From Dictyostelium discoideum (taxonomy: Eukaryota), in contig CM000151.3 of assembly GCA_000004695.1 (NCBI GenBank), positions 960,001 through 1,024,000 of the forward strand: DNA of 64,000 nt. The letters are read 5' to 3'. The notes under the pieces are model-generated. The model was not told the DNA's origin, did no database searches, and saw only the letters and a program-made list of their open reading frames with translations. Positions 1,117-36,250 of the stretch are shown piece by piece. How positions within the stretch are numbered: the stretch's first letter is position 1; every line of letters begins with the position of its first letter. The translations under genes and the position numbers were made by a program.

Positions 1117-4100
1117 AGAAGTAAGTTTAATCGGAATTACAGCTATCTTATGCCAAAAAACAGATGGTTTTTGGAAAAATATAGATGATTCTTTATGTAG
1201 ATTAGAAGTTTTAAAAAGTAATATAGATTCAAAATTTAGATTAGTTGCGATTTCAACTGATAATAGGGTATGTTTTTTTTTTTTTTTTTTTTTTTTTTTT
1301 CTTTTTTTCTTTTTTTTGTTTGGTTAAATAATTAAAATAAACTAACTTTACACTTATCCAATCTTACAATAATGATAGTGTATTTTTAATAAATGGGTTA
1401 GAACCAATAGTGAGATCACAAAATGTAGTGATCTATTTTTAGAGATAAAACAAGTATCATCTCAAAGTTCCAATGTAGAATATTTCGGTGTCAATTTCGC
1501 ATATAAACCTGAAGTTGACAAGTTTTATGCATGTTTTTCAAAATGTATTGAAACTTTACAAACACAAAGAAGACAAAGTACTCTAAATATACAAGCTCTT
1601 CAAATAAATAATGGTATGTATGAATTATTATTATTATGTATAATATACCAAAAATAATATTAATTCGCTTTTTTATTTATTTTTAAAGAATTACAACAAC
1701 AACTTCAACAGCAACAACAATTACCACCAATAGATCAATTACCACCACCACCAACATCAACATCAACATCAACAATATCAAATGCAAATATAAGTATATC
1801 AAATTCAATATCATATGATTCATTACATCAAATGGCGAGTGGTATTACATTAGAAGATTTACCACCACCACCACCATCAGCATCATCATTAATATTAAAT
1901 AATAATACACCATTAGATTTAACATCATTACCACCAATTGATTTTTCAAATTTACCACCACCACCAACAGGATTAATGACATCAAGATCATCATTAACAG
2001 AAGCTAATGGATTAGAGATTAAAAATAAATTATCACCATTATTAAATGGTGGTGCAAGTGGTTTATCATCTTCACCACCACCAACAACTGAATCAAAGAA
2101 TCAATTAAATTCAAGTAGTGGTAGTAATAATTCATCATCAGCACCACATTTAACTGATTTATTCTTACCAACAAATAATAATAATAGTAGTGGTAATCAA
2201 TCTGCATCAAATAGTAGTCCAACATCACAATACCATCAATCACAACCAAATTTACAACAATATGGTACTGCACCATTGACAGCAAGTAGTAAACTATTAC
2301 AACAGCAGCAACAACAACAACAACAACAACAACAAAATATAATTATGACAACAACTACAACTACAACAACTACAATTAATATAAAAACAGGATCAAGTTC
2401 TGATAGTTTTTTAAAGACAGCATCTGGTAGAAGATCAATCAGAGTTAGACATTCAACTAATCAAGCAGCAGATCAACAAAAGAAAACTATGGGTAGAAAA
2501 GATGGTTTAGCAGTTTCATTACAAAATGTTGAAGGTTTACAAAATATAGCAGAGAATTTAGAGGATGAAACTTTGAATCTATTGGATTTAGTCAATGAAC
2601 AAGTGGTAACACCAGAGATATCAAACAATGCCCATTTGAATCAATCATTAATGAAAATCTTTGAACATTTACAGGTATTATTTATTTTAACTGGTCAAGC
2701 ATCAACTCATCCAGGTGGTAAATTAATTACTCAAGTTGTAAATAAACTTGGTAGAGGACCACAAGCATCAGAATTCTTCTCTGGTAAATCAGTGGATGGA
2801 GGTTATCAATGGTATAATCTTGATGAGGTTAAAGATTCTGTCATTGGTATTCACAATTTATTAGCATTGAAAAAGAATCTTATCACAGCTATAGCTCATC
2901 TTTCAACTTGTGTAAGAGTGTTGGGTTTACAAGCTAGTCTTGAAATCGATTGGATGTCAAGAAATAAATCATCAGAAACAGAGAAAATAGTGGTACAATT
3001 GGCTTGTTTAACTAGAGAATTAATCAGTTCAATGTCAAGATTATTAGCTGCAACCGTAACCTATTGTTATGTTTGTTCTTCAATTGCTTTCATTAGAAAT
3101 CAACAACATTCTGCATCGGCCGATCATAATCAAGCATCCATTCAAAATAGAATTAGATCACCATCAACCATTGATACAATTAATATTTGGGATGAATTGA
3201 AAACCATTAAAACCATACCAACCGTACCAAAAGATGGTTCAATATTAAAGGTTACATTGAACCAATTGGTGTTAATGTTAACTTCGGAAACTTCATACGA
3301 TAGTAAATTCCTTAAAACTTTTATCACCACCTATCAATCATTCGCTTCACCTGGTGTTCTATTCACAAAGTTGATAGAACGTTTCTACGTACCAGAATGG
3401 TATAGTACTGTACCCACTAAAATTAGCACAATTCAACAAAAGGTAATCGTGGTTTTAAAATATTGGATTGAAAATCAATCATCGGATTTCGATCAAGATG
3501 TTATCGATCAAATTTACTTTTTCATTAATAATTTGGCAAATTCAAATGAAGGCTATTCAGAATTGTCTAGATTATTACGTGGTTTATTGGATAAAATGAT
3601 TCAAGATCGTGAAGTTAAATTTGAACTCCTATTTCAAATGCCACCAAGAATCTCTTTTGAAGAGGATTCAATCTTATCTCCAATTGAATTATTCTCTGAA
3701 TGGAGTGCTCAATCAATTGCTCAACAATTAACTCTAATAGATTTCTCTATCTTTAAAGATTTGGAAGCAAGAGAATTATTAAATCAAAATTTTAATAAAC
3801 CAAAATTAAAGTATAAATCACCAACAATTATGAGAATGATTTCAAAATCAACTCAAGTAAGTAAAAAAAAAAATTATTTAATAATAATAATAATAATTAA
3901 AAAAAAAAAAAAAAAAAAAATTTATTTACTTATATATTATTATTATTTTTTTATAATAGTTTTCATTTTGGGTTGCATATGTTATTTTAATGGAACCAAA
4001 AAAAGAAAAAAGAATTAAAATTTTTGAAAAGTTTTGTGAAGTTGGTAAATATTTATTAAAGATGAATAATTTCAATTCTTTAATGGGTTTAAATGCTGGT

Positions 4101-4640
4101 TTAAATTTAACTTGTGTTCATAGATTAAAGAAAACAAAGAAAAAGTTATCATCATCTGCTATTTCAATTTTAACTGAATTGGAAAGAATTTTCTCTTCAA
4201 AGAAATCTTTTAAAAATTATAGAGATCATTTATCAACTGTACAATTACCATGTATTCCATATTTGTATGTATTTTTTTTTTTTTTAAAAAAAAATATTCA
4301 ATAGAGGTTTATTTATTAATTTAATAATAATAATAATTTTTTTTTTTTTTTTTAATTTTAAATTTTAAATAGAGGATTTAATTTAACAGATATTACATTT
4401 ATTGAAGAAGGTAATACTGATAATATTTCATCAACGGATCCAGCAGCAGCAAATATTGGACCATTAATTAATTTTAAAAAGAGAGAATTACTTTACCAAG
4501 CATGGGCTGATCTTAGTAGATTCCAAGAAACTCCATACACTTTCCAACCTGAAGAACCATTAAATACTTTCTTATTAAATTTCCCAATTTTAGATGATAA
4601 AGAACTTTATGATTTATCAATTGCTCTCGAACCAAAATAA
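1117..4640 (+). CDS. Ras guanine-nucleotide exchange factor (RasGEF N-terminal/REM domain plus CDC25-homology catalytic domain). Exons 1117..1267(?), 1379..1613, 1689..3856, 3960..4264, 4373..4640. The 5' end is probably upstream of the window.
   Basis: The 728-aa ORF 1832..4018 carries the REM motif (TFITTYQSFASPGVLFTKLIERFYVPE...VVLKYWIENQ). The CDC25-domain motifs WSAQSIAQQLTLIDFSIFKDLEARELL and NFNSLMGLNAGLN are present, and CIPYL|GFNLTDITFIEEGN spans a GTATGT...AG intron. Donors are GTATGT/GTAAGT with T-rich AG acceptors; frame continuity was checked across introns 1268-1378, 1614-1688, 3857-3959 and 4265-4372. The exon at 1117 begins in phase 2 with no ATG, so further 5' exon(s) are implied. 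Confidence 0.8.
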
Positions 4641-4687
4641 AAAAAAAAATTAACATCGATATAAATAATAATTCTGAAAATAATAAT

Positions 4688-4820
<133 letters not shown>

Positions 4821-5143
4821 CCTCTTTTTAAAAGAAGAAGATATTTATTTACTCTCTCTATTTATAAAACAAAATATTAAAAAAAAAAAAAAGAAAAAAA
4901 AAAAAAAAAGAAAAAAAAAAAAAAAAGATATAAATAACAAAATATGATAAAATATTTGTAACAATAGTAATTTAAATAAAAGCTTAGCTCCTTTTTGGAT
5001 TCGAGTTTTCCAACAATTTATTTATTTATTTTTTAAAATACAATTTTTTTTTTTTTTTTTAAACAAGTTATTTTAAATTTACATTTAATTATTTTTTTTT
5101 TTTTATTATTATTGGAATAAAAATAATAATAAAAATAATTAAT

Positions 5144-5736
5144 TTATTCTAATTCAACCCCATTTCTAGTTTCTGTATCATAATTTTTCTTATCTTCTTC
5201 TTTGTTTTCTTTCTTTTTACTTAATGATACGAAACCTGGGTGGAATGGAATCCAAATACACATTAATAAAAACATTGGGAGAGTATCCAAACCATAGAAT
5301 AAAGGTTCGTTAATCATAACTGCTGAATGATAACCGCCTAATAATTTATAATATTAATTATTTAATTAATAATTTTACATTAGTTTTAATTAAAATTTCG
5401 AAGAAATAGAGAAAAAAAATAAAAAAAATAAATAAAAAAACTTACCTGCATATTCTGCAACACGATATATACTTCTTAAAATAATTAATATACCACTTGC
5501 AAATAAAGCAATAAATATAATTCTCCATTTTTTATCCTCTTCTTGTACTTTTAATACCTTAATATATAAATATATTATTAAAAAAAAGAATAATGTGAAT
5601 GAACATAAAGCTATACATAATCCTGTTAACATCACACCTTTTGCTGGCTTATCTAAATCAGGATTATCTGCTGATTGAGCTAAAAGTGCGCCACCAGCTA
5701 ATTTTATTTTAAAAAAATATTAAATAATTAATTAAG

Positions 5737-5768
<32 letters not shown>

Positions 5769-6313
5769 AATTACCTCCTTGAATAATAATTGAAAATATA
5801 TCCACTATTAAAAATAAATATTTAACAACGTTTGGTTTAAAAATTGGATGTTGTATTCCAGTTCTTTTCATAATTTTACCAAGTTGGGCAAATAAAAAAA
5901 CAGCTGCTAAAGCAGTTGGTGGTAATAGAATAAGTAATGTAGTTGCAATATATGTTCCAAGGACATGGGTGTCTTGGGCACTCTTAATTCTAATTGCATA
6001 TCCTATGACTGTAACTGTATATATTTATTTAATTAATTTTTTTTTTTTTAAAATAGAAAAGTAATTAGTAATCATTTTAGTAATTTCTTTTTTTTTTCCT
6101 TTATTTTTCTTTTTAATTGCCCCCCTTACCAATTCCTGCACCAGGTGCAACTAAAAAATAAAACTTTTTAAATTTTATTGATAAAATTATTAATACAAGA
6201 GACACTGTTGAAAAGCACACAATAGCTGCTATTGATAATCCTTGACTTGGTTCATATCCATATAAATTTGGATACTTTGGGAGGTCGGCTAAATTTACCG
6301 AAGAAGAATTCAT
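5144..6313 (-). CDS. RTA1-like multi-pass membrane protein (RTA1 / lipid-translocating exporter family). Exons (minus strand) 6130..6313, 5775..6014, 5446..5697, 5144..5337.
   Basis: The N-terminal YGYEPSQGLSIAAIVCFSTVSLV... is followed by seven or so hydrophobic helices, which is the typical RTA1 layout. Introns have GTAAGG/GTAATT/GTAAGT donors and T-rich AG acceptors. Exon lengths fit the reading phases (1/1/1) and a TAA stop at 5144. Confidence 0.75.
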
Positions 6314-7244
6314 TATGTTTAAAAAAAAAAAATTTATTGCAATATTTTATTATTTTATTTATTTATTTATTTATTTTAATTATTTATTTAATTATTATAT
6401 AATAACTATATAATTAATTTTTAATTTAATTTTTTTTTTTTATTTTTTTTTTTTCCCCTTTGGTTTAAAAATAAATATTTTTTAGTAAATATTTTAAGTT
6501 CCCACCTTACAACTCTTATTTTAAATAAAAGAGAAAAAAAAAAAAATTGTTTGTATATTGTAAGCATTAAAAAAAAAAAAAAAAAATTATTTTTAATTAT
6601 TTTAAAAAAAGATTGGTGTTGGGATTATTTCCAAAAATATCAATTCCATGTCGCGATAACTTGAATTAATTCAGAAAACAAATTGTGATATCATTGTTTT
6701 AATTCTATTGTTTTTTATTTTTGTTTTGACTCTATGGAGAATTTTTATTTTGTTGGAGTTGTAACCTTCGCAAACATTAAAACTGACCCCCTAAAAAATA
6801 AAAAGGTTTTTTTTTTTTATTTTAAAATAAAAACGTTTAAATTATTTTAATTTTAATTTTTTTTTTTTTTAAAAAATAAAAAATCGGGTTGGAGTTTGTA
6901 ATATGCTTTGTTGTTTTTTTTTTTTTTTTAAAAACAAAATGTAAAAAATAAAAATCATCAATGTAACTTTCCCAAAATGGTATTTTTTTCTTTTCATTTC
7001 AAAAATGTGACAATAACAACAAATCATTTTTTTACTTTTTTTCTTTTTTTTTTAAATAAGTATTAGAGTTTTAAAATTAAAATATAAAAAAAAAAAAAAA
7101 AAAACAAAAAAACATTTAAAATGTATTTGTGCGGATATTAAAATATTTTAAATGTCTTTTTTTATTTTTTTTTTTTATATATAAATTTTAAAACTCTACC
7201 ACTTATTTTTTTATATTTAATTTTTTTTTATTATTTGTTTTTTA

Positions 7245-7275
<31 letters not shown>

Positions 7276-7333
7276 TTTTCAGAATTTTATTTTTACACAC
7301 GCACAAAAAAAAGAACATGAGGTCTTAAGACTA

Positions 7334-7781
7334 TTAATATTGATATTTTCCCAATTCAAATTTTGTTTCTGAATTTCTTTTTAAGCAATGAAATTGTTTG
7401 AATGACTCTGTGACATAAACTAAGGTTTCACCTGAAACGAAATCATCTGATGGTGCAAATAGGATATCATGCAATGAAATAGCAATAGCATTTTCAGGAA
7501 CTACACCATTTGCCAACTTTTGGCTAAACCCATCACAAAAATAAATATAGCTTACAGAATTTGGAATTGAACCTTTCACAAGTTGATAATCAATATTGAA
7601 AATATAAAGATTTTCAATTGATGGTGGCAATGACTTAAGTGATTGGTTAAATCCATCTGGCAACAATAATCTTATACAAGAGGATGGAAAAATTGGTGGT
7701 AAATTTTGGCCAACTCCAATTGCAATATTTTCAGTTTCAGGAACAATACCTCCATTTTCATAGATTGTAAATTCTACACCA

Positions 7782-7832
<51 letters not shown>

Positions 7833-8109
7833 AATAATAATTAGTACAATTTTAAAATATTCATTTCTTATTATTAGTATATATAATTAAAAAAATATTA
7901 CCAAATATAGTTTTTTTTAAAACTTTATTTTGTGGTACTATGTAAGATAGTTTTTCTTCTTGTTGTTGGGATTTAATATTTAATTGCATTTGAGATTTCA
8001 AAAGATGTTCATAAATTTTTTCTTGTACTAATTGTTCGCGAAATTGGTTATTAAATGATATAACACCCTCTTCTTTTTCAATAGAAATATCATTTTCATC
8101 TGTTTTATT

Positions 8110-8199
<90 letters not shown>

Positions 8200-8964
8200 A
8201 ATGTTTGTTGTATTATTTTTATCATCATCATTTATTGGTTCATCTAAAATTTCAGAAGGATTTTTTGGTATTATAAAATCATCTTGAGATTCACCAATTA
8301 TTTTAAAAGTTTTCTCATATAAAATATCTTTTATTAATTGAATTTGATCAGGTTCAATTGAAAATGTAATATTACGATAATTTGGTAATGGGTCATCCAA
8401 ACTTGATAGTAATTTTTTTGATTGTTCATAATGTTTTAAAACTGCTACATAATTAGATGTTTGAATTTCATTTTCATTATCATATAAATCTGAAAGGTGT
8501 GAAATTGATGATTTAATTGTTTTCAATTTTTGATCAATATGCATATGGATATCATCACATTTTTGACATTCTGTGGAAATTTCACTTAATAAATTATTTA
8601 GAACCAATGTAACATGTCTTATGATTCTATCAGCTTCAGTTTTAACTATATTACCGATTTTTTCAAGTTTGCTTTTTTTTTCTTCATGTTCCATATCTGA
8701 TTTCTTTAAAACTTTTTCTATGGATTTTGAAAAGTTTTTAAAAATTGGAATTGTTTTTTTTAATTTTGAAATCATTGGAGAAACATATTCATCTTTAAGT
8801 AATTTAAATGTATGACTTCTATGTTTATCGCTTGTTATACATATGATACATACTGGTTCTTCACATTCAATACAAACTGATTTAATTATTTCTGATGGAT
8901 GTTCTAAACATTCATTATTACATTGAGGTTGTACAATATTATTTTCTTCCATTTTTTTTTTCAC
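7334..8964 (-). CDS. B-box zinc-finger / coiled-coil protein with C-terminal FNIP repeats (Dictyostelium bbox-FNIP family). Exons 7902..8964 and 7334..7782.
   Basis: A B-box-like C/H cluster (CNNECLEHP...CIECEEPVCIICITSDKHRSHTF) is followed by a long helical segment and a poly-N tract. The 3' exon carries FNIP-type repeats (LPDGFNQSLKSLPPSIENLYIFNIDYQ..., IYFCDGFSQ...). The intron runs GTAATA...TTTTTTTAG with phase 1 verified. Confidence 0.75.
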
Positions 8965-21924: not shown

Positions 21925-23245
21925 TTATTTTCTTTTTATAGTTTTCTTTTTTTGAACTTTATTTGGAGTTGATTTTTTATGAACTTGAATATGATTTAAA
22001 AAAGTTGGTTTTTGTCTTTCTTCTCTTTTATCTAATACAATTTTAGATTTACATCTCCACATACACCAATATGGATCATAGAAATAATCTTTTAGACGAA
22101 CTTGTTCTTCTTTAACTCTAATATCGATGAGTTCTTCTTTATCCAATAAACCAATGGAAGAGATAATAACAGGTGTGTTGGTATCATTAGTATTTGGCAT
22201 TTCAGGTACAACCAAATCATCATTAATACCAGTTGAAGAGGAATCTTCAAATTCTTCTATACCATCTTCAGTTGAATGTAAACCATCGAAATAGAAATAA
22301 AAGTATTGTTCTTCCTCTGGATCGAAATGAAGTATTGGTTTACCCAATTGACATTCTCTACAAATAAAAGGTTGGGTTGAACATTCACGAGTACATGGTA
22401 AGCCAAGACAATGTAAATGAAAAGCTCTTAAACAACTACCTTGACAGACTATCAATGGGACTGGTTGAGTTGACATTGTAATGATATCACCACTTGGAAT
22501 AATGTTACCATTGGCATCCAATGTTGGTGGTGGTGGTGGTTGTTGATATGGAATGGGTGGTTGTTTACACATGTCACATACCAATGCAACAATCTCTGAT
22601 TTATATTGTGCATCGATTTCACATTGATGTAAATGTTGTTGATATTGTTCTTCAAATTCTTTATCGAGTTCCTCAACTGATTCCATTGGATCATTGCTAT
22701 CGTTGGCAGCGATTGCAGCATTTACAATCTCCATTACATTTGAGAAAACCAATTTAATATCTTGATAGATGATTTGATAATCTTTATAGTATTTAGTAGT
22801 TAATCTCTTTTCAATTGTACCTAAATCCATTGGATTCTTTATGTGATCTTTATATTTGGATTGATCGCCAAATGGTTCTCTAATTTGTTTAGTTCTTGTA
22901 TCTTTCATTAATTGTAAAACCATTGATTTCAAATGATCAATCATTAATTCATTCAAAATTGGTTTAGTAGTTTTAACTTTTGGACGATAAACTTGTTTTG
23001 CCCATTTTTGTTGTTGTGCAATATGAGCTTGTTGAATTTGAATTTGAAGTGCTTGTTGTTGTCTAAATATTTGTTCTTCTTGTGTTAATTCACGACCATC
23101 TTCACCAATAATTGGTTGTTGTTGTTGAATTTGTTGTTGTTGAATTTGTTGTTGTTGTGGTTGTTGGTGTTGAATTTGTTGTTGTTGATGCTGTTGTTGT
23201 AATTGTTGTTGTTGGTGTTGTTGTTGTAATTGTTGTTGTAAATAC

Positions 23246-23299
<54 letters not shown>

Positions 23300-24089
23300 A
23301 AATATTGTTGTTGTTGTTGTTGTTGTTGTTGTAAATATTGTTGTTGTTGTTGTTGTTGTTGACGATGTTGCATTAATCCTAATGACTGTTGAGATTGAGG
23401 TGTATTAAAAATATTATTTATTAATTGTTGTGGAGTTGGAGTTTGTTGTTGTGGATGATGATTTTGAACTGGTGTATGATAAATATTATTTATAATTGCA
23501 GATTTAATTGGTGTAATATTACTAATTGGTTGTTGTTTTATTGGTGTTGGGAAATTACTATTACCATTCATCATATTATTTCCATTTGAAAGTGGGGTAC
23601 CATTTTGATTGGTTGTATCATAACCCATATGATCACCCATTGTCATTGGACCACCCATTGGGTTATTTGATCTTTGACGTCTTGAATCTTGTTGTTGTTT
23701 AATATAACATTTTTTACATTTACTTGCACGTGGATAAAATTCTGATAATGGTAGAATAGAATTTGTATTCCACCATTGTTGATGTAATGGGTGTTGACAT
23801 GCTTGATAGTTTATTCCTGGTTGTTTCTCTACTTGTGGTATATCCATTGGTTGTGGTGAATGTTGTGCTTGTGCTGCTGCTGTGGCCGCTGCTGCTGCTG
23901 CACGTATTGGTGTTTGTTTAGATTGTTGTTGTTGTTGTTGTACCTGTTGCTGTTGTTGTTGTTGTTGTTGTTGTTGATATTGATATAATAGTGCTTGTTG
24001 TGCTTGTTGTTGTTGTTGTTGTTGTAAATAGTGTTGTTGCTGTTGTTGTTGGGCTTGTTGTTGCTGTTGTTGGGCTTGTTGATAATATA

Positions 24090-24127
<38 letters not shown>

Positions 24128-25047
24128 GCTGCTGCTTGTTGCTGTTGTTGTAATAATTGTTGTTGTTGTAATTGTTGTAATTGTTGTGGTGTAAACATCA
24201 TTTGTTGAGAATAAGGTGCGACCATTGGTTGTTTAACAGGTGTCATAATTGGTACGCCACCACTAATGGTACCACTTGATACAATTGGACTAATTGCTGA
24301 TAGTTGTGGTGGTGCACTTACACCTTTATTATTATTATTGCTATTACTACTAATTAAAATGGGTGACATTGCATTAATGTTTGCTTCAATTGAACCATCT
24401 GAAGAATGTTGTTGTTGTTGTGCAACGGCAGCAGCTTGTTGTTGTTGTTGTTGTTGTTGTTGTAATAGTTGTTGTTGTGCTTGTTGTTTTTTACTCTCTT
24501 TAACTGGAATTATAGGTGAATGATTAATATGTTTAACTCTAGTTGGATCAACTGGATCACCATCTTGTTCATGTCTTGAAATGTGACGACTAAAGTTGGC
24601 TTGTAATGATTTATTACAATTTAAAAAGAAACATGTATAGAAACCCTCTTCATTTTTATGAAATAAATTTGAACCATACTTTTCCCTTTGATAATTCATT
24701 AAACCTGGACCATCGGTTTTCATCAATGTATTGGGTGTTGGTGGTGCACTACCAATTGGTGGTGTTGTAACAATGGTTGAATTTGTCATTGTTGGTGTAA
24801 TAGCTGATGCTTGAATTGGTGATGTCACTAATTGTTGTTGTTGTTGTTGAGCTTGTTGTTGCACTTGTTGTTGTTGTTGTTGAGCTTGTTGTTGTTGTTG
24901 TGTTTGTTGTAACAATGGATTTATTAATCCAACCAATGGTGAATGTAATTGTTGTGAATGTAACATACCTGTTGTATCTGTACCTGGTAATGGTAATGGT
25001 AATGATGTTTGACCATACAATCCATTATATAAACCATATGGATTCAT
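21925..25047 (-). CDS. Bromodomain-containing poly-Q nuclear protein with a PHD-like Cys cluster and a C2H2-like finger
   Basis: Bromodomain-like IREPFGDQSKYKDHIKNPMDLGTIEKRLTTKYYKDYQIIYQDIKLVFSNVMEI. PHD-like C..C...C..C.HLHC...C..C cluster (CDMCKQ...CQGSCLRAFHLHCLGLPCTRECSTQPFICRECQ). C2H2-like YTCFFLNCNKSLQANFSRHISRH. Very long CAA/CAG poly-Q runs. Confidence 0.7.
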
Positions 25048-30822: not shown

Positions 30823-30853
<31 letters not shown>

Positions 30854-30963
30854 GATATAAATAAACTATTGTAGTATACAATTAGTATGTTATTTTTATT
30901 TATTTATTTTAGGTTTTTTAGTTTTTGTGAATTTAATATGGTATGTTATTTTAGATTAGGTAA

Positions 30964-33900
30964 TTAATAATTAATTGGTGGTGTAATTGTTGGAATTGGT
31001 TCATTTGTGTTAATGCTCCATTCTTTTTTAAATTTTTTGATGGTTTCGGACCATTGGGTTTCTTTTTGAGTTTTTGTGAGGTTGTTTTTAATTGAGTATT
31101 GGTTAAAGTTTGATAAAGTTCTTGAATATTCCAATCTTATTAGCTTGTGCCATTTTGATTTTAATATATCATAATCTAGTGTTGTGTTGTTTATTTGGTT
31201 GTTCCAATTATCAATTGATTGAGTTATATTGATGTCAAATAATGATTTGCATAACCATATCCATATTTGGTGAATAACTAATGAGATTATGTTCCAATAT
31301 GCATGTGTTCTGACTAGATCAAGATTTGTGTTTATATAATTCCAGTTGAACCTGTATTTTTTATATTTTGCGTTTTCTGCAAAATGAAAATTAATATTGA
31401 TAGTTGGATCTGGTTTAAATGCTTTGTTGTTTGTTTGTGGTTTATAGATGAGTGTGTATAATTTTGTTGTTTGGTTTTTTGTTAGTGACCAGTTTTTGTT
31501 TCCATTGCAATTTTTATATATAAAATATTTTAATTTGTCGTGGTTAATGAAGTTGATTGTGTGCTGACAATTGAAAAACAAATGACCATAGGGATCATTA
31601 TTCATTTCATTGTTGCAAATGGGGCAAACTTTGTTGTGTAGATGATTAATCGGAAGACATCTAGCATGGAATCTTTGCATTGTATCTCGGCCTTTTGGAT
31701 CTTTTAATTTTTGAATTTTGACAAAAAGTTGGTCGTATGTGTATTTCCATAATAGTTGTATTGATTGTTGGTGCGAAGTAAGAAGTAGATCTGAATATTT
31801 CTTGCCAATATAGTCTTTTGATTTGCATTGGTGATTGTTTAGTATTGTCGAGTAGATTTCTTTGAGTGTTGGTGGTAGTGAAATATTATTTGTGTTTAAT
31901 GTTTGAGAGGGTTGGTTTTTTGTTAATATTGGTTGTAGGATTTGAACTTTATCTTTTAGATGTCCAATTTGAGTTGCATAGTTTTCCCATTCTTTTTTGA
32001 TTTTTATAAGGTATGGAGAAGAGATTGATTTGTTGATGATTTGATCCATCCAACTTATCATGTATATTGAATTGTTTGCAGATTTATGCATTTGTAAAAA
32101 TCTGTTGTATATCCAAATCTTTTGAGCAACTTGTCGTAATTGTATATTCCACATACCCCAACCACCTTCTTTTAATGGTTTTAATGATCTATCATAACAC
32201 ATCAAAGGTATTTTTGCACGTGAATGGATGGTTGATGTGTTGTTTTCAATGGAATTGGTATTGAGAGTTGGTGATTCAGAATTTGCGGGAGAATTCATAA
32301 ACCATGAGATTAATTTATTAATTTGAATTTCTTCATCTTTTGTAAATTCTTCAAGGTATGATAAATATGTTATTGGTGATAGTGAGTAGGTGTTTATGAT
32401 GGTTGTTTTTGTTTTTAATGTTGTGCCACTAGTTTTCCATAGCACTAATGATTTAATCAGTGTTTTCATTGTTTCTGGTAATTTCCTATGTAAACCATTA
32501 TGATTAAAGAAATAGCCAAGAACTCTTTCTGATTGATCTTTTTTGGTTATTGGTATTCTTTTTGATTGTGGAATGTTGTTTATTATGTGTTTATCAGTGA
32601 TTTTGTGGGGGTTGATTTCTATTATTGCACTTTTGTCAAAATTTAATGATGATGATGTTGAAGCGCAGAAATTATCGAAATGTTTGATTGATTGTTGTTG
32701 TTGTTCGTAGTTGATGTTGTATGTTGTAGAGTCGTCTGCAAATTGGGTAAATTTGATTTTAATTTGTGGATTGGGTGAAATTGGTAATCCAATTATTGAA
32801 TTGTCTGCATTTATTGTTCTTGCTAATATTTCAATTACAATTACAAATAAAGTGGCTGAGATTGGGTCACCTTGTTTTACACCTCTTTTAATATCGAATT
32901 TTCTGGTCGTTTTACCATTAATTGAAATTTTTGCTTGTGAGTCAGATAATAGCTTGTGGATTAAATTTATTAATTTTATTGGTATACCAATATGAATTAA
33001 TGTTCTTTTAATGCTATCGTGAGAGATAGAATCAAATGCTTTAAAGAAGTCAAATAGTGTGATGATACCAGGGAGGTTTTTAGATTTGAGGTAGTTGATT
33101 AATTCATTGATGTTGATGATGTTGTCTATGATGAATCTGTGGGGTACGAAACCAGTTTGGTTGTTGTTGATGATGAAAGGAAGTATTCTCAGAAGACGTG
33201 CATTGATTACTTTTGAGAGGATCTTGTAATCAGTGTTTAGAAGTGTAATGGGACGACGATTTGATATGAGTAAGGGGTTGCCTTTCTTGTATATTGTGTG
33301 TATAAGACCTTCTGTGAATTCTGTTGTGATGTGGTGAGGATTTTCTAGTATATCGTTGAATAATGTAGTGAGAATTGGTTTAACTTGGTTTAAATGATTA
33401 ATGTAGAATGCATTTGTAACGCCATCTGGACCGGGTGATTTGTTGGGGTTACAGGTTTTAATTGCAGCTTCAACTTCATCTTGTATAAATGGTGAGTCTA
33501 AACCATTCCAATATTCATTTTTTATGATGGGCCATGTGTTTAGCATGAGCTGGTGAGTAATTGGACAACATATTTGTAAGCTATATAGATTTGTGTAGAA
33601 TTCAACAAACGCATTTTCAATTTGGTCGGGGTCGGATGTAATGATGTTACCATATTGGATTGATTCAATTTTTGCATCTTTTGATCTTTTGTTTAGTATT
33701 GCTGATAGATACTTGCTAGGTATTTCTCCATTTATATGTTTTTTTAATATGTTTGTGTGGTTTTGATGTAATTTGTTTTTGTTACATATAATATTGTATT
33801 CAGCGATGCATTGTTCTTCAAGATGTTTGAATTTTGCTGCTTTTTCTAATAGTATTTGTTTTGCACGTTGAGTTTGTTTGTCTTTGTTATATTGATAGTT

Positions 33901-34779
33901 TTTTAGAGTTTTAATAATTTTTGATTTTACTTTTGACCAGTTTGTAAATTGATTGATTGATGTGTTATTGTGATTAGTTATTAAATGATTGATAATATTG
34001 ATTGCTTCATGGTCATTTGCAGTACCAGGTGATAATATCCATCTTTTCTTATGTTTATTTATTTGAAAAGGTGAAGAAATTGTTGTTGATATTGGATTAT
34101 GATCTGATAATGAAGATGGAATTTGGTGGACTTGTGTATATATATTTTCAGGGTCTATTCTATTGTATTGAGTATATATTCTATCTAATCTGTTGCCATG
34201 TGTATGAGTTGGAGTGTTTTTAAATTCACCTTGATCAATTAGATGGTGTTGGTATGTGTAGGATTGGATAATATCATCTAATAGTGAATTGTCGTTGTGG
34301 ATACAGTTGAAATCTCCTGCGATAATAGATACATGTTGGGATTGGTTTGGTATTGGGTTTGTTGAGTGGTTGTGGAGAAGTGTTTGTAGTGAAGTTGCAT
34401 ATGAATTCTTTTTGATGGTATTATTTGATGCTGGTGCGTAAATTCCAAGAATACCAATTGGTAATTGATTTGGAAATATAACGTCTGCTAAAATAGCTCT
34501 ACCATCAATTGTTGATATGTGTTTGAGTTTGAGTGTGTTTGGGTTATGGTTAATGATGATTACACCATTTCCTCGTTTGGTGACAGAGATGATGTGATCG
34601 GGAAAATCATGTTTAAGTTGTAATGGTGATGAATTGAGTTCAGTGAGTATTGAGATTGTTGGACGAGGTGGAAGTTTTGAAATAAAGAGTTGTAGTGTGT
34701 CAACAGCTTTTTGGTAGGAATTGTGTTGATTGTTTGGGTTTTCAGTGAATCCTCTACAATTCCATGTTATAAAGTTGAT
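30964..34779 (-). CDS. TRE3 ORF2 (AP-endonuclease, reverse transcriptase and C-terminal domain). It is open for about 1270 codons without an initiating ATG until 33546.
   Basis: Manual translation from 34779 downward gives GISSKINFITWNCRGFTENP...IIAGDFNCIHNDNSLLDDII with no stops. The six-frame track lists only the ATG-initiated part 30964..33546 (860 aa), which contains the RT domain. Confidence 0.7.
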   Translation of the reverse strand: MNFITWNCRGFTENPNNQHNSYQKAVDTLQLFISKLPPRPTISILTELNSSPLQLKHDFPDHIISVTKRGNGVIIINHNPNTLKLKHISTIDGRAILADVIFPNQLPIGILGIYAPASNNTIKKNSYATSLQTLLHNHSTNPIPNQSQHVSIIAGDFNCIHNDNSLLDDIIQSYTYQHHLIDQGEFKNTPTHTHGNRLDRIYTQYNRIDPENIYTQVHQIPSSLSDHNPISTTISSPFQINKHKKRWILSPGTANDHEAINIINHLITNHNNTSINQFTNWSKVKSKIIKTLKNYQYNKDKQTQRAKQILLEKAAKFKHLEEQCIAEYNIICNKNKLHQNHTNILKKHINGEIPSKYLSAILNKRSKDAKIESIQYGNIITSDPDQIENAFVEFYTNLYSLQICCPITHQLMLNTWPIIKNEYWNGLDSPFIQDEVEAAIKTCNPNKSPGPDGVTNAFYINHLNQVKPILTTLFNDILENPHHITTEFTEGLIHTIYKKGNPLLISNRRPITLLNTDYKILSKVINARLLRILPFIINNNQTGFVPHRFIIDNIININELINYLKSKNLPGIITLFDFFKAFDSISHDSIKRTLIHIGIPIKLINLIHKLLSDSQAKISINGKTTRKFDIKRGVKQGDPISATLFVIVIEILARTINADNSIIGLPISPNPQIKIKFTQFADDSTTYNINYEQQQQSIKHFDNFCASTSSSLNFDKSAIIEINPHKITDKHIINNIPQSKRIPITKKDQSERVLGYFFNHNGLHRKLPETMKTLIKSLVLWKTSGTTLKTKTTIINTYSLSPITYLSYLEEFTKDEEIQINKLISWFMNSPANSESPTLNTNSIENNTSTIHSRAKIPLMCYDRSLKPLKEGGWGMWNIQLRQVAQKIWIYNRFLQMHKSANNSIYMISWMDQIINKSISSPYLIKIKKEWENYATQIGHLKDKVQILQPILTKNQPSQTLNTNNISLPPTLKEIYSTILNNHQCKSKDYIGKKYSDLLLTSHQQSIQLLWKYTYDQLFVKIQKLKDPKGRDTMQRFHARCLPINHLHNKVCPICNNEMNNDPYGHLFFNCQHTINFINHDKLKYFIYKNCNGNKNWSLTKNQTTKLYTLIYKPQTNNKAFKPDPTININFHFAENAKYKKYRFNWNYINTNLDLVRTHAYWNIISLVIHQIWIWLCKSLFDINITQSIDNWNNQINNTTLDYDILKSKWHKLIRLEYSRTLSNFNQYSIKNNLTKTQKETQWSETIKKFKKEWSINTNEPIPTITPPINY

Positions 34780-34787
34780 TTTTGAGC

Positions 34788-35996
34788 TTATACCTTACTA
34801 GGTTTGGCAGCACCAGTATTGACTGGTTGTGTAGTCAGGGAATTGCTGCTTCTTCTTGTATTTATTGTATTTGGAGTTGGTGCACTTGGTTTGTTTGGTT
34901 GAGATTGTAGAGGTTTTTGTGGTACAATTGTTGGATCGGTTGGATTGCTCATTGATAATGAGTTTTTCCCGTTATTATTATTTGAAGAATCACTTTTGTG
35001 TGAAATTTCATTATTGTTTTGGGATTGATTGTTAATATCAAGTGATTCATTTAGTATAGCTTTTGAACCACTATTTTGAAGTGAGTTATTATAGCGATTG
35101 GAATTTGCAATTTCGTTGATTGGTGGGGTGTTAATGTTGTTTTTTGGTGGTTGATTGTTTTTGTTCATGTTTGGGTTTGTGATGGCATTTTTTATAGTTG
35201 TTGCCATATCTGCATTTTTTGCATGTTGAATTTTGTGTTTAGTGACACTACGTGTTGCAGCTTTGATATATCTTGTGATACCAGATGGTTGTTCGATCTT
35301 TTGATCAACAATGTTGTGTGTGTGATCAATTAGATGATATGTTATAATGTAGCTTTTAAACGCAACAGCATATGAGTATGTGACAGTAAATGATTCAATT
35401 GATGTACAACTGGTGAATTTAGTGAGGTTGTTTGTAATTGCATCGTTTGCATGTTTGGGTGAGTATGTTTTAATGAATGTTTTAATGATTGCATAATCAT
35501 TTGATGATATATCGAATCTATAGTTGAGTTTGTCGATATTTAGTGCAAGTTGGTTTTGAAGGTTGATTATTGAAGTTAATTTATCAACGTTGCAATTTAC
35601 GAAGGCAGTTGCACCAATTATTTTGAATGCTGATGGCGACAGTATATCTTCGAAGAGTTTGTGAATGTTTTTGTGAATTTGTTGAATTCTTGTGTCATCT
35701 TTTGAGGTTAATTCTTCACGGATGTGTGGTTGATTAAAGTAACACTTAATGTTGATGGTGTTATTGTTTTTTTCTAAGAAAGAGAGTGGTCTTGTGATTG
35801 ATGGAGGTGCAATGATATCTAATTGATTATCAAGTCCTTTGTTTAGTGAGAGTTGGTTTGTTGGGGTTTGTTTTTTAGGTGTGTCGATTTTTGCACTTTT
35901 GTTTTTTGTTGTTGAGGTTGTGGAGGTATTATTTGTATTGGTTGTGTTGTTATCTGTATGATTTAACTGTAATTCAGTTGAGTGATGATCAGCCAT
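34788..35996 (-). CDS. TRE3 ORF1 (402 aa, nucleic-acid-binding/Gag-like protein of the retroelement)
   Basis: Intact ORF with ATG at 35996 and N/T/S/Q-rich termini. Confidence 0.7.
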   Translation of the reverse strand: MADHHSTELQLNHTDNNTTNTNNTSTTSTTKNKSAKIDTPKKQTPTNQLSLNKGLDNQLDIIAPPSITRPLSFLEKNNNTINIKCYFNQPHIREELTSKDDTRIQQIHKNIHKLFEDILSPSAFKIIGATAFVNCNVDKLTSIINLQNQLALNIDKLNYRFDISSNDYAIIKTFIKTYSPKHANDAITNNLTKFTSCTSIESFTVTYSYAVAFKSYIITYHLIDHTHNIVDQKIEQPSGITRYIKAATRSVTKHKIQHAKNADMATTIKNAITNPNMNKNNQPPKNNINTPPINEIANSNRYNNSLQNSGSKAILNESLDINNQSQNNNEISHKSDSSNNNNGKNSLSMSNPTDPTIVPQKPLQSQPNKPSAPTPNTINTRRSSNSLTTQPVNTGAAKPSKV

Positions 35997-36136
35997 TGTT
36001 GAAAAGTATATAGGACGATAGCCCTTGCTTTAATGAGCAAAAAAAGGGTAAAATTAAGAGGAATGAATGTGGCGGTGAAGATATAACAGTGATTTATTTA
36101 TTATATGTATAAATTCTCGTTTATTTCTTTTAATCA

Positions 36137-36160
36137 AAGGAATCGAACCTGCGATCTGAT
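36137..36160 (-). promoter_or_regulatory. Extra B box (ex-B box) downstream of tRNA-Gly
   Basis: GGATCAGATCGCAGGTTCGATTCC (minus strand) lies about 25 bp 3' of the tRNA. It matches the B-box consensus GGTTCGAnTCC, and no A box or acceptor stem is present. Ex-B boxes are a known feature of Dictyostelium tRNA genes. Confidence 0.7.
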
Positions 36161-36179: not shown

Positions 36180-36250
36180 TGCGTATGCTGGGAATCGAAC
36201 CCAGTTCGCATCCGTGGCAGGGATGCATCATACCACTAGACCACATACGC
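36180..36250 (-). tRNA. tRNA-Gly (anticodon GCC)
   Basis: Minus-strand read GCGTATG TG GTCTAGTGGTATGAT GCATC CCTGCCAC GGATGC GAAC TGGGTTCGATTCCCAG CATACGC A. It has a 7-bp acceptor stem, A box TAGTGGTA, anticodon loop CTGCCAC, and B box GGTTCGATTCC. Confidence 0.9.

Follow-up and report, generated by a model that had tools for sequence, protein, structure and literature searches.

Downstream of a tRNA-Gly gene, the 64,000-nucleotide stretch of Dictyostelium discoideum DNA analysed here (the window) carries a TRE3-type non-LTR retrotransposon whose two reading frames are both open. An earlier note, made from the sequence alone, described it as apparently intact and as a candidate for an active element. 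Does this copy retain what it would need to give rise to new copies? Our analysis makes it likely that it does not, and that the locus holds a full-length copy of the L1-clade element TRE3, most likely TRE3-B, that is translationally impaired, slowly decaying and no source of new copies.

Extent and parts of the element

A full-length two-ORF element with UTRs and an oligo(A) tail is present downstream of tRNA-Gly as the earlier note had it, with small corrections (Table 1). In a blastn comparison with copies L001-L004 the window element aligns gap-free at 99.5% identity, and the alignment ends inside the A-run. Comparison of the junctions shows that homology with six other copies starts exactly at AAAGAAATAAACGAG, which moves the 5' end from position 36105, where it had been placed, to 36130. 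The oligo(A) run, read before as 26 nt, is in fact 28 nt long (30853 to 30826); tails of other copies have 13-28 A. The 5' end of L002 is at the same base as that of the window element, which is without the A-rich leader of 26-36 nt (GAAAAAACGAAAAAAAAACCGAAAAAAC) found in four of the six other copies.

Table 1. Features of the element and of the neighbouring tRNA gene (positions in the window)
Feature	Position	Strand	Description	Basis
Whole TRE3 element	30826..36130	(-)	5,305 bp with A-tail, 5,277 bp without tail	blastn vs copies L001-L004
5' UTR	35997..36130	(-)	134 nt, first bases AAAGAAATAAACGAG	junction comparison
ORF1 ('gag')	34788..35996	(-)	402 aa + TAA stop, uninterrupted	
ORF2 ('pol') open frame	30964..34794	(-)	1,276 sense codons + stop at 30966-30964	
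Canonical ORF2 start codon site	34789..34791	(-)	ATA here, ATG in six other copies	
APE-type endonuclease	34099..34770	(-)	ORF2 residues 9-232	Pfam Exo_endo_phos PF03372, E = 2e-12
Reverse transcriptase	32596..33288	(-)	ORF2 residues 503-733	Pfam RVT_1 PF00078, E = 3.7e-31
C-terminal CCHC knuckle CPICNNEMNNDPYGHLFFNC	31567..31626	(-)	ORF2 residues 1057-1076	translation
3' UTR	30854..30963	(-)	110 nt	
Oligo(A) tail	30826..30853	(-)	28 A	
External B box (ex-B) GGTTCGATTCC	36139..36149	(-)	same as internal B box	sequence + motif scan
tRNA-Gly(GCC)	36180..36250	(-)	presumed integration landmark	ARAGORN; Rfam RF00005, 63.6 bits
Internal B box GGTTCGATTCC of tRNA-Gly(GCC)	36201-36191	(-)		sequence read

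Target-site duplications had been suggested at about 30826 and 36105, and none that is convincing was found. A search of the two junctions of the window element returned no duplication of at least 8 nt; the best junction repeat is the 7-mer ATTAAAA with an offset of 12 nt, and repeats of 7-8 nt occur at chance level in AT-rich DNA. The AATTTAT near 36105 (~36115-36109) was ruled out as a target-site duplication by the junction comparison, being element sequence common to all copies. Sister copies have clean target-site duplications of 10-12 bp. An unoccupied site in another strain was not recovered, and the single other assembly with the flanking genes also has the insertion. Within the 64-kb window we found no further copies; the other composition-skewed regions of the window are simple repeats and genes.

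The ORF listing bears out an uninterrupted ORF1 of the length given in the earlier note. Its exact sequence is that of the deposited AX4 protein DDB_G0271954, it is identical to GenBank gag AAD43056 at 399 of 402 positions, and its private changes are D4H, N302Y and A386S. A Pfam search of ORF1 found no domains, and a single-sequence AlphaFold model was unusable (pLDDT 34).

With respect to ORF1, ORF2 is read in frame -1; it is open from 34794 for 1,276 sense codons, where the earlier note had given about 1270. The protein is identical to GenBank pol AAD43057 at 1272 of 1275 residues (99.8%), with private changes at the start codon (M to I) and at two further positions (L37F and Q1143K). Endonuclease residues N12, E52, D161, N163, D204, D231 and H232 and the FADD box of the reverse transcriptase (A686, D687, D688) are all kept and fall in invariant columns of a 15-sequence alignment (A1), the consensus of which also conserves the C..C..H..C pattern of the knuckle; the private amino-acid changes fall outside the invariant columns. 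The catalytic residues of both enzymes and ORF1 are thus intact in the window copy. The catalytic residues also match those of human LINE-1 ORF2p (PDB 8uw3, 8sxt, 8c8j), and a profile made from A1, which includes the window ORF2, spans the whole of this protein in 8uw3 and 8sxt, endonuclease and C-terminal domain included (E ~1e-220). With the endonuclease alone, a phmmer search of the PDB gave no match and a profile was needed. The first ATG in the ORF2 frame is codon 417, past the endonuclease, so that an ATG-based ORF listing gives an 860-aa ORF only. The exact ORF2 translations (860, 1,275 and 1,276 aa) were absent from the protein collection searched.

Family and subfamily

TRE3-B was reportedly described by Szafranski et al. 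in 1999 and by Glöckner et al. in 2001. It is a tRNA gene-targeted retroelement of the 3' type (Spaller et al. 2016, PMC5006619), and the same source defines TRE3 elements by features that the window element has: two ORFs, an ORF2 with the order APE, reverse transcriptase and zinc knuckle, short UTRs and an oligo(A) tail, at a distance of tens of bp past a tRNA gene whose orientation they share. Architecture, position and length support the earlier assignment to the TRE3 type and its description as full length by comparison with the published consensus. From 36130 to 30854 the element measures 5,277 bp, and the full-length consensus is 5,279 bp for TRE3-B and 5,229 bp for TRE3-A (PMC5006619 Table 1). 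At the protein level it shares 99% identity with the deposited gag and pol. It differs from TRE3-B in having ATA for the ORF2 ATG and five private substitutions, in being without the A-rich 5' leader that some copies have, and in having no recognisable target-site duplication.

A second TRE3 family, often found in tandem with that of the window (L002, L004, L006), is ~5,222-5,229 bp long (~5,225 bp) and, judged by its length and its ORF overlap, is probably TRE3-A. The architecture and the tRNA-downstream targeting of TRE3-A (Tdd-3) are the same as those of the window element. However, the ORF2 of the second family is 29-38% identical to that of the window's family, its ORF1 has 416 aa and no detectable similarity to the window ORF1, and its ORFs overlap by 85 nt in the -1 frame, with a TAATG junction. 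The window element is 48 bp longer than TRE3-A and has an ORF overlap of 7 nt without a slippery site.

Gene names point in the same direction as length. DDB_G0291686, named 'TRE3-B ORF2' (PMC12405889 Table 2), has an ID that adjoins that of DDB_G0291688, a member of the window's family, and it was not returned by homology searches using the second family. By length and by this adjacent gene ID, the window element is most likely TRE3-B.

The converse assignment, with the window element as TRE3-A (Tdd-3) and not TRE3-B, appears rather unlikely to us. It would agree with the gene-model counts, the window's family having the most annotated gene models found (clusters of 13 and 29 members), and with AAD43056/AAD43057 possibly opening the series of submissions made in 1999. 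TRE3-A is also the most abundant TRE3 (PMC5006619). But the lengths run the other way, with 5,277 bp set against 5,229 bp and the other abundant family at 5,222-5,229 bp; moreover, the 85-nt -1 overlap of that family fits the published description of TRE3-A, and the gene named for TRE3-B (PMC12405889) has an ID next to that of a gene in the window's family. The element is of a known kind, a catalogued full-length TRE3 copy, and such copies are less rare than the earlier note implied: 13 of 67 TRE3-A and 9 of 43 TRE3-B copies are full length (PMC5006619).

Position relative to the tRNA gene

The element lies 49 bp 3' of tRNA-Gly(GCC), with tRNA and element both on the (-) strand. The ex-B box begins 30 nt past the 3' end of the tRNA gene and stops 8 nt short of the first base of the element. 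In D. discoideum, 66% of tRNA genes are followed by a box of this kind (GTTCRAnYC) at a distance of ~41 bp (PMC3159450). The published insertion window for TRE3 is 40-150 bp downstream of tRNA genes (review PMC5911963), with insertion distances of 34-188 bp for TRE3-B and 14-228 bp for TRE3-A (PMC5006619 Table 1); at 49 bp and in the same orientation as the tRNA gene, the window element falls inside these published ranges (14-228 bp overall). Four sister copies follow tRNA-Thr and tRNA-Leu genes at distances of 30-45 bp.

The earlier note had matched position and orientation relative to the tRNA gene and the ex-B box to a known TFIIIC-directed targeting of TRE3. The position is indeed within the published window, but the targeting mechanism is a hypothesis as far as TRE3 is concerned. 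Targeting has been tested experimentally for TRE5-A only (PMC5006619), and it is for TRE5-A that experiments have shown Pol III factors to guide integration (PMC3159450, PMC5391098), the demonstrated interaction with TFIIIB being that of TRE5-A and not of TRE3. TRE5-A (DRE) is likewise an L1-clade, tRNA-targeting element with two ORFs and the same order of ORF2 domains, but its insertions lie ~50 bp upstream of tRNA genes and are oppositely oriented, its UTRs are built of A/B/C modules, and its ORF1 is unrelated. We infer that TRE3 may recognise a B-box-bound complex of Pol III factors, which would account for the insertion position. The copy probably arose by target-primed reverse transcription, in which the ORF2 endonuclease would nick the DNA, the oligo(A) end of the RNA would then be reverse-transcribed and the 5' end joined, and the Pol III factor complex on the B box would guide the element to its site 49 bp past tRNA-Gly.

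The ORF1/ORF2 junction and the ORF2 start codon

The element is intact in so far as both frames are open, but its ORF2 start codon is not. In six of six other copies the junction reads ATGA, with the ORF2 ATG overlapping the ORF1 stop (context GGTATGAGC), and in the window copy it reads ATAA (GGTATAAGC) as the result of a private G>A substitution at 34789. GenBank pol and DDB_G0291958 both start MSSKINF, and the canonical ATG is M1 of GenBank pol; ORF2 of the window copy is therefore incomplete at its initiation codon (ATG>ATA, 34791-34789). The same A is found at the orthologous locus (L007) of the independent assembly GCA_054883475.1. Directly upstream of the ORF2 open frame are the ORF2-frame stops TAG TAA (34800-34795), and the 7-nt overlap of the two ORFs leaves a frameshift window of two codons (AAG GTA) that contains no slippery heptamer. 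The second TRE3 family has a stop-start overlap too, TAATG in three of three copies.

Stop-start overlaps of the UAAUG and AUGA kinds couple translation in Bombyx SART1 and in several RNA viruses. The TRE3 junctions resemble these in that the stop of ORF1 and the AUG of ORF2 share bases, within AUGA in the family of the window element and within UAAUG in the second family; they differ from human L1, which has a spacer between ORF1 and ORF2 and does not target tRNA genes. We tentatively suggest that TRE3 ORF2 may be translated by coupled termination-reinitiation at the AUG overlapping the ORF1 stop and not by a -1 frameshift, and in the window's family ORF2 is probably made in this way at AUGA. 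For TREs such coupling is a proposal, whereas the literature describes a -1 frameshift, by which the ORF2 of TRE3-A would be reached (review PMC5911963).

Divergence and probable decay of the window copy

The private changes of the window copy comprise six non-synonymous, four synonymous and one UTR change, whereas in the L001-L004 lineage most of the differences are synonymous. The diagnostic bases are 35987C, 35093T, 34841T, 34789A, 34686T and 31368A. Four copies elsewhere, in another assembly, are mutually 100% identical, so the TRE3 family of the window looks recently mobile; the recently amplified lineage is a haplotype other than that of the window copy, which is 0.47% diverged from it. 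None of ~35 other gene models in two genomes has the private residues of the window copy. The orthologous copy in GCA_054883475.1 shares not only ATA but also D4H, N302Y, L37F and Q1143K, and its ORF2 is frameshifted by a deletion of 2 bp, which suggests that there is no selection on this locus.

These observations tell against the earlier view of the copy as a candidate active element: with an ATA start and five further private changes, it is most likely impaired in translation and gives rise to no new copies. The insertion is an old one, common to two assemblies; its ORF2 ATG became ATA through the G>A substitution at 34789, and a further five amino-acid changes, likewise private, have accumulated.

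Could the ATA be harmless and the copy still be retrotransposition-competent? AUA is a near-cognate start, and AUG-independent translation of ORF2 in human L1 was reportedly observed by Alisch et al. in 2006; a degree of ORF2 synthesis may therefore persist, by reinitiation at AUA or by an L1-like mechanism. The -1 frameshift described for the ORF2 of TRE3-A (PMC5911963) would, if valid for the window's family, make the ATG irrelevant. Open frames, complete catalytic residues, a divergence of just 0.47% from a recently amplified haplotype and a 5' end coinciding with that of L002, a demonstrably recent insertion, would all agree with competence. Nevertheless we consider it unlikely: the two-codon window offers a frameshift no slippery heptamer, the ATG is kept in all six other copies and the stop-start overlap recurs in a family with an ORF2 only 29-38% identical, the private changes are mostly non-synonymous and appear in none of the other gene models, and the orthologous allele is frameshifted. 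It is far less probable again that ATG>ATA and the remaining private differences arose through errors of sequencing or assembly in a copy that is truly the consensus, for although repeats are error-prone in assemblies and the two assemblies differ within this copy by 11 substitutions and one 2-bp indel, the orthologous locus of the independent assembly also reads ATA and shares the four amino-acid changes named above, and ORF1 with these changes is the deposited AX4 protein. An impaired, decaying copy thus remains the reading that we prefer.

Implications

TRE3 elements, their tRNA targeting and the numbers of full-length copies have been published, and the locus has little importance beyond annotation, for which the corrected boundaries (5' end at 36130, tail of 28 A) are useful. 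It does illustrate that open reading frames do not amount to an intact element, a single G>A having removed the ORF2 start codon. If the reinitiation model is true, the window copy would be a natural AUG knockout, present in two strains, that shows the fate of an element after loss of coupling. The AUGA and UAAUG overlaps in two distantly related TRE3 families offer, for the expression of TRE ORF2, an alternative to the frameshift model that can be tested.

The TRE3 element and its tRNA gene

The window copy lies in DNA of ~22% G+C and is 5,305 bp long, of which 5,277 bp precede the tail, its two open reading frames being bordered by a 5′ UTR of 134 nt and a 3′ UTR of 110 nt. The closest protein matches are all from Dictyostelium discoideum: ORF1 is identical to the deposited AX4 protein DDB_G0271954 and agrees with GenBank 'gag' (AAD43056) at 399/402 positions, and ORF2 agrees with 'pol' (AAD43057) at 1272/1275. 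In a 15-sequence alignment, window ORF2 retains every invariant endonuclease residue (N12, E52, D161, N163, D204, D231 and H232) and the RT motifs, including FADD; its C-terminus bears a CX2CX10HX4C knuckle. Human LINE-1 ORF2p matches the profile from this alignment end to end (E about 1e-220). A Pfam search of ORF1 gave no match, and its single-sequence AlphaFold model (pLDDT 34) was unusable. The description in the earlier note, a TRE3-type element with two open ORFs, an oligo(A) tail and a tRNA-Gly gene, is thus correct in substance, as are its family assignment and the position given relative to the tRNA gene. The copy is single, no second TRE3 copy being found inside the 64-kb window.

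Features of the TRE3 element, its tRNA gene and the comparison copies
Feature	Position	Strand	Remarks
TRE3 element	36130..30826	-	
tRNA-Gly(GCC)	36250..36180	-	ARAGORN + Rfam; sole tRNA gene either tool found on minus strand
Internal B box of tRNA-Gly(GCC)	36201-36191	-	GGTTCGATTCC
External B box (ex-B)	36149-36139	-	same sequence as internal B box; begins 30 nt past tRNA end
ORF1	35996..34788	-	402 aa
ORF2 open frame	34794 to stop 30966-30964	-	1,276 codons
Exo_endo_phos	ORF2 residues 9-232		Pfam, E = 2e-12
RVT_1	ORF2 residues 503-733		Pfam, E = 3.7e-31
Oligo(A)	30853..30826	-	28 A
L001-L004 element copies	2867-8143 of each		GCA_054883475.1
Stop-start overlap sites	L002 9645-9649; L006 about 6976 and about 9851; window 34791-34788		

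The element sits 49 bp downstream of tRNA-Gly(GCC), and sister copies sit 30-45 bp downstream of tRNA-Thr or tRNA-Leu genes with the tRNA orientation kept. Such spacing agrees with what has been reported for TRE3, which inserts in the same orientation 40-150 bp downstream of a tRNA gene (review PMC5911963), TRE3-A ranging over 14-228 bp and TRE3-B over 34-188 bp (PMC5006619 Table 1). Of D. discoideum tRNA genes, 66% have an ex-B box ~41 bp downstream (PMC3159450), and the insertion point is within about 10 nt of this box in the window, L001 and L002. This proximity makes TFIIIC-directed targeting a reasonable hypothesis for TRE3; the earlier note called it known, but tRNA-gene targeting has been studied experimentally for TRE5-A only (PMC5006619). 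At L003 ~2690-2790, upstream of the element, ARAGORN found no tRNA; tRNA-like halves occur there in an unusual order (GTTCGAGCC... then GGGTTTCCATATTAGCTCAGCGGTAGAGCG) and may represent a tRNA gene that is rearranged or contains an intron.

Elsewhere in the window, a hexanucleotide (AAAGAG) array at 48939-49559 (about 103 units, 83% matching) makes the 49-50 kb region extremely purine-skewed, and a relatively G+C-rich stretch at 55076-55622 holds a tandem repeat of 33/66/99 nt (TCAAATTCTGGATCTCAAAGATCATCTGGTTCA...) in about 17 copies, which probably encodes a Ser/Gly-rich repeat.

Boundaries and target-site duplications

Aligned by blastn with four copies from a second D. discoideum assembly, GCA_054883475.1 (L001-L004), the window copy is 99.5% identical with zero gaps. 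Because homology starts at window 36130 (AAAGAAATAAACGAG...) in all four, ending inside the A-run, the 5′ end is placed there, 25 bp beyond the 36105 first proposed. An additional A-rich leader of 26-36 nt (GAAAAAACGAAAAAAAAACCGAAAAAAC) is found on 3/4 of these copies and on the tandem copy L004b, and the first base of L002 is that of the window copy; with the leader varying among copies, the 5′ end of the family is heterogeneous. The leader, absent from the window copy and L002, consists of CGAAAAAA-like units (L001, L003 and L004 ~2831-2866; L004 ~8190-8221). In a second, distantly related TRE3 family one copy carries a 36-nt stretch duplicated at the 5′ end, and 5′-end heterogeneity also occurs at L006 ~5520-5581.

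Sister copies have clean target-site duplications of 10-12 bp (GATTCTAGATAG, TAAATCGGGTC, CGAAGCTCGG and TTTTTACGAA); the ends of the window copy show just chance-level 7-8-mers. AATTTAT near 36115-36109 was rejected as a duplication, being element sequence.

Loss of the ORF2 start codon

The junction at 34789 reads GGTATGAGC in all six other copies (L001-L004, L004b and L005b), the ORF2 ATG being overlapped by the ORF1 stop TGA as ATGA, and GenBank pol and DDB_G0291958 begin at that same methionine (MSSKINF). The window junction reads GGTATAAGC, so that the ORF1 stop is TAA and the ORF2 codon ATA. The change is real, since the orthologous locus in GCA_054883475.1 (same flanking genes, 99.4% identity over 23 kb) has ATA too. 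That locus was located with a 1,040-aa single-exon ORF at window 21925-25047 (-), which has long GTT/TTG trinucleotide runs (Asn/Gln-type on the coding strand) and whose protein is identical in both assemblies. In the ORF2 frame of the window copy TAG TAA stands directly upstream, and the next ATG is codon 417, beyond the endonuclease.

For TRE3-A, ORF2 has been ascribed to a -1 frameshift (review PMC5911963). Only two ORF1 codons, AAG GTA, separate the upstream ORF2-frame stops from the ORF1 stop in the window copy, and this overlap holds no slippery heptamer, which makes such a frameshift an unattractive mechanism in this element. The second TRE3 family, with an ORF2 29-38% identical to that of the window, has a TAATG stop/start overlap in 3/3 copies. 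An ATG over the ORF1 stop in both families suggests, on sequence grounds, termination-reinitiation rather than the -1 frameshift of the reviews. ORF2 would then be made by coupled termination-reinitiation at the overlapping ATG, and loss of the AUG would lower its synthesis.

Subfamily

The window element is probably TRE3-B, a call based on element length. Its family measures 5,277 bp, and consensus lengths are 5,279 bp for TRE3-B, 5,229 bp for TRE3-A and 4,734 bp for TRE3-C (PMC5006619 Table 1). The second family, found in tandem with it at L002, L004, L006 and L008, measures ~5,222-5,229 bp and has a 416-aa ORF1 without detectable similarity to window ORF1; its ORF1 and ORF2 overlap by 85 nt in the -1 frame, as has been described for TRE3-A. 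PMC12405889 (Table 2) gives DDB_G0291686 the name 'TRE3-B ORF2', and the adjacent gene ID, DDB_G0291688, belongs to the window's family. The lengths, the TRE3-A-like overlap of the second family and this adjacency favor TRE3-B over the alternative that the window element is TRE3-A.

Head-to-tail TRE3 arrays of the same or different subfamilies, including copies with internal deletions and 5′ truncation, occur downstream of one tRNA gene (L002 8225-11033; L004 1-1364 and 8222-11033; L005 1-2990; L006 5554-14449).

Divergence and activity

L001-L004, at four different tRNA loci, are mutually 100% identical over 5,277 nt, which together with their clean 10-12 bp duplications points to very recent amplification of this TRE3 family in that strain. 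Compared with these four, the window copy has 25 variant sites. Its private changes comprise D4H, N302Y and A386S in ORF1, the start codon, L37F and Q1143K in ORF2, four synonymous changes and one in a UTR, a non-synonymous/synonymous ratio that is close to neutral; the L001-L004 lineage is set apart chiefly by synonymous changes, a pattern to be expected where function has acted as a filter. Among ~35 other gene models (AX4 and second assembly) the private residues are absent except from the orthologous copy and the deposited ORF1, and hence no progeny is visible. The orthologous copy differs by 11 substitutions, and its ORF2 is thrown out of frame by the loss of 2 bp (AT) from an (AT)n run at window 34145-34144; these differences are consistent with an unconstrained locus and may reflect either genuine divergence between strains or errors in long-read assembly. 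Full-length copies are not unusual, accounting for 13/67 TRE3-A and 9/43 TRE3-B (PMC5006619).

The earlier description of the element as intact holds for its open frames and catalytic residues but not for the ORF2 ATG, and its candidacy as an active element is weakened by the ATA codon, the private changes, the lack of visible progeny and the frameshift in the ortholog. AUA is a near-cognate start, and AUG-independent translation of ORF2 is reportedly known in human L1; we nonetheless consider residual activity of the window copy unlikely. The window copy is a known element of the reference genome, and is less intact than it appears.
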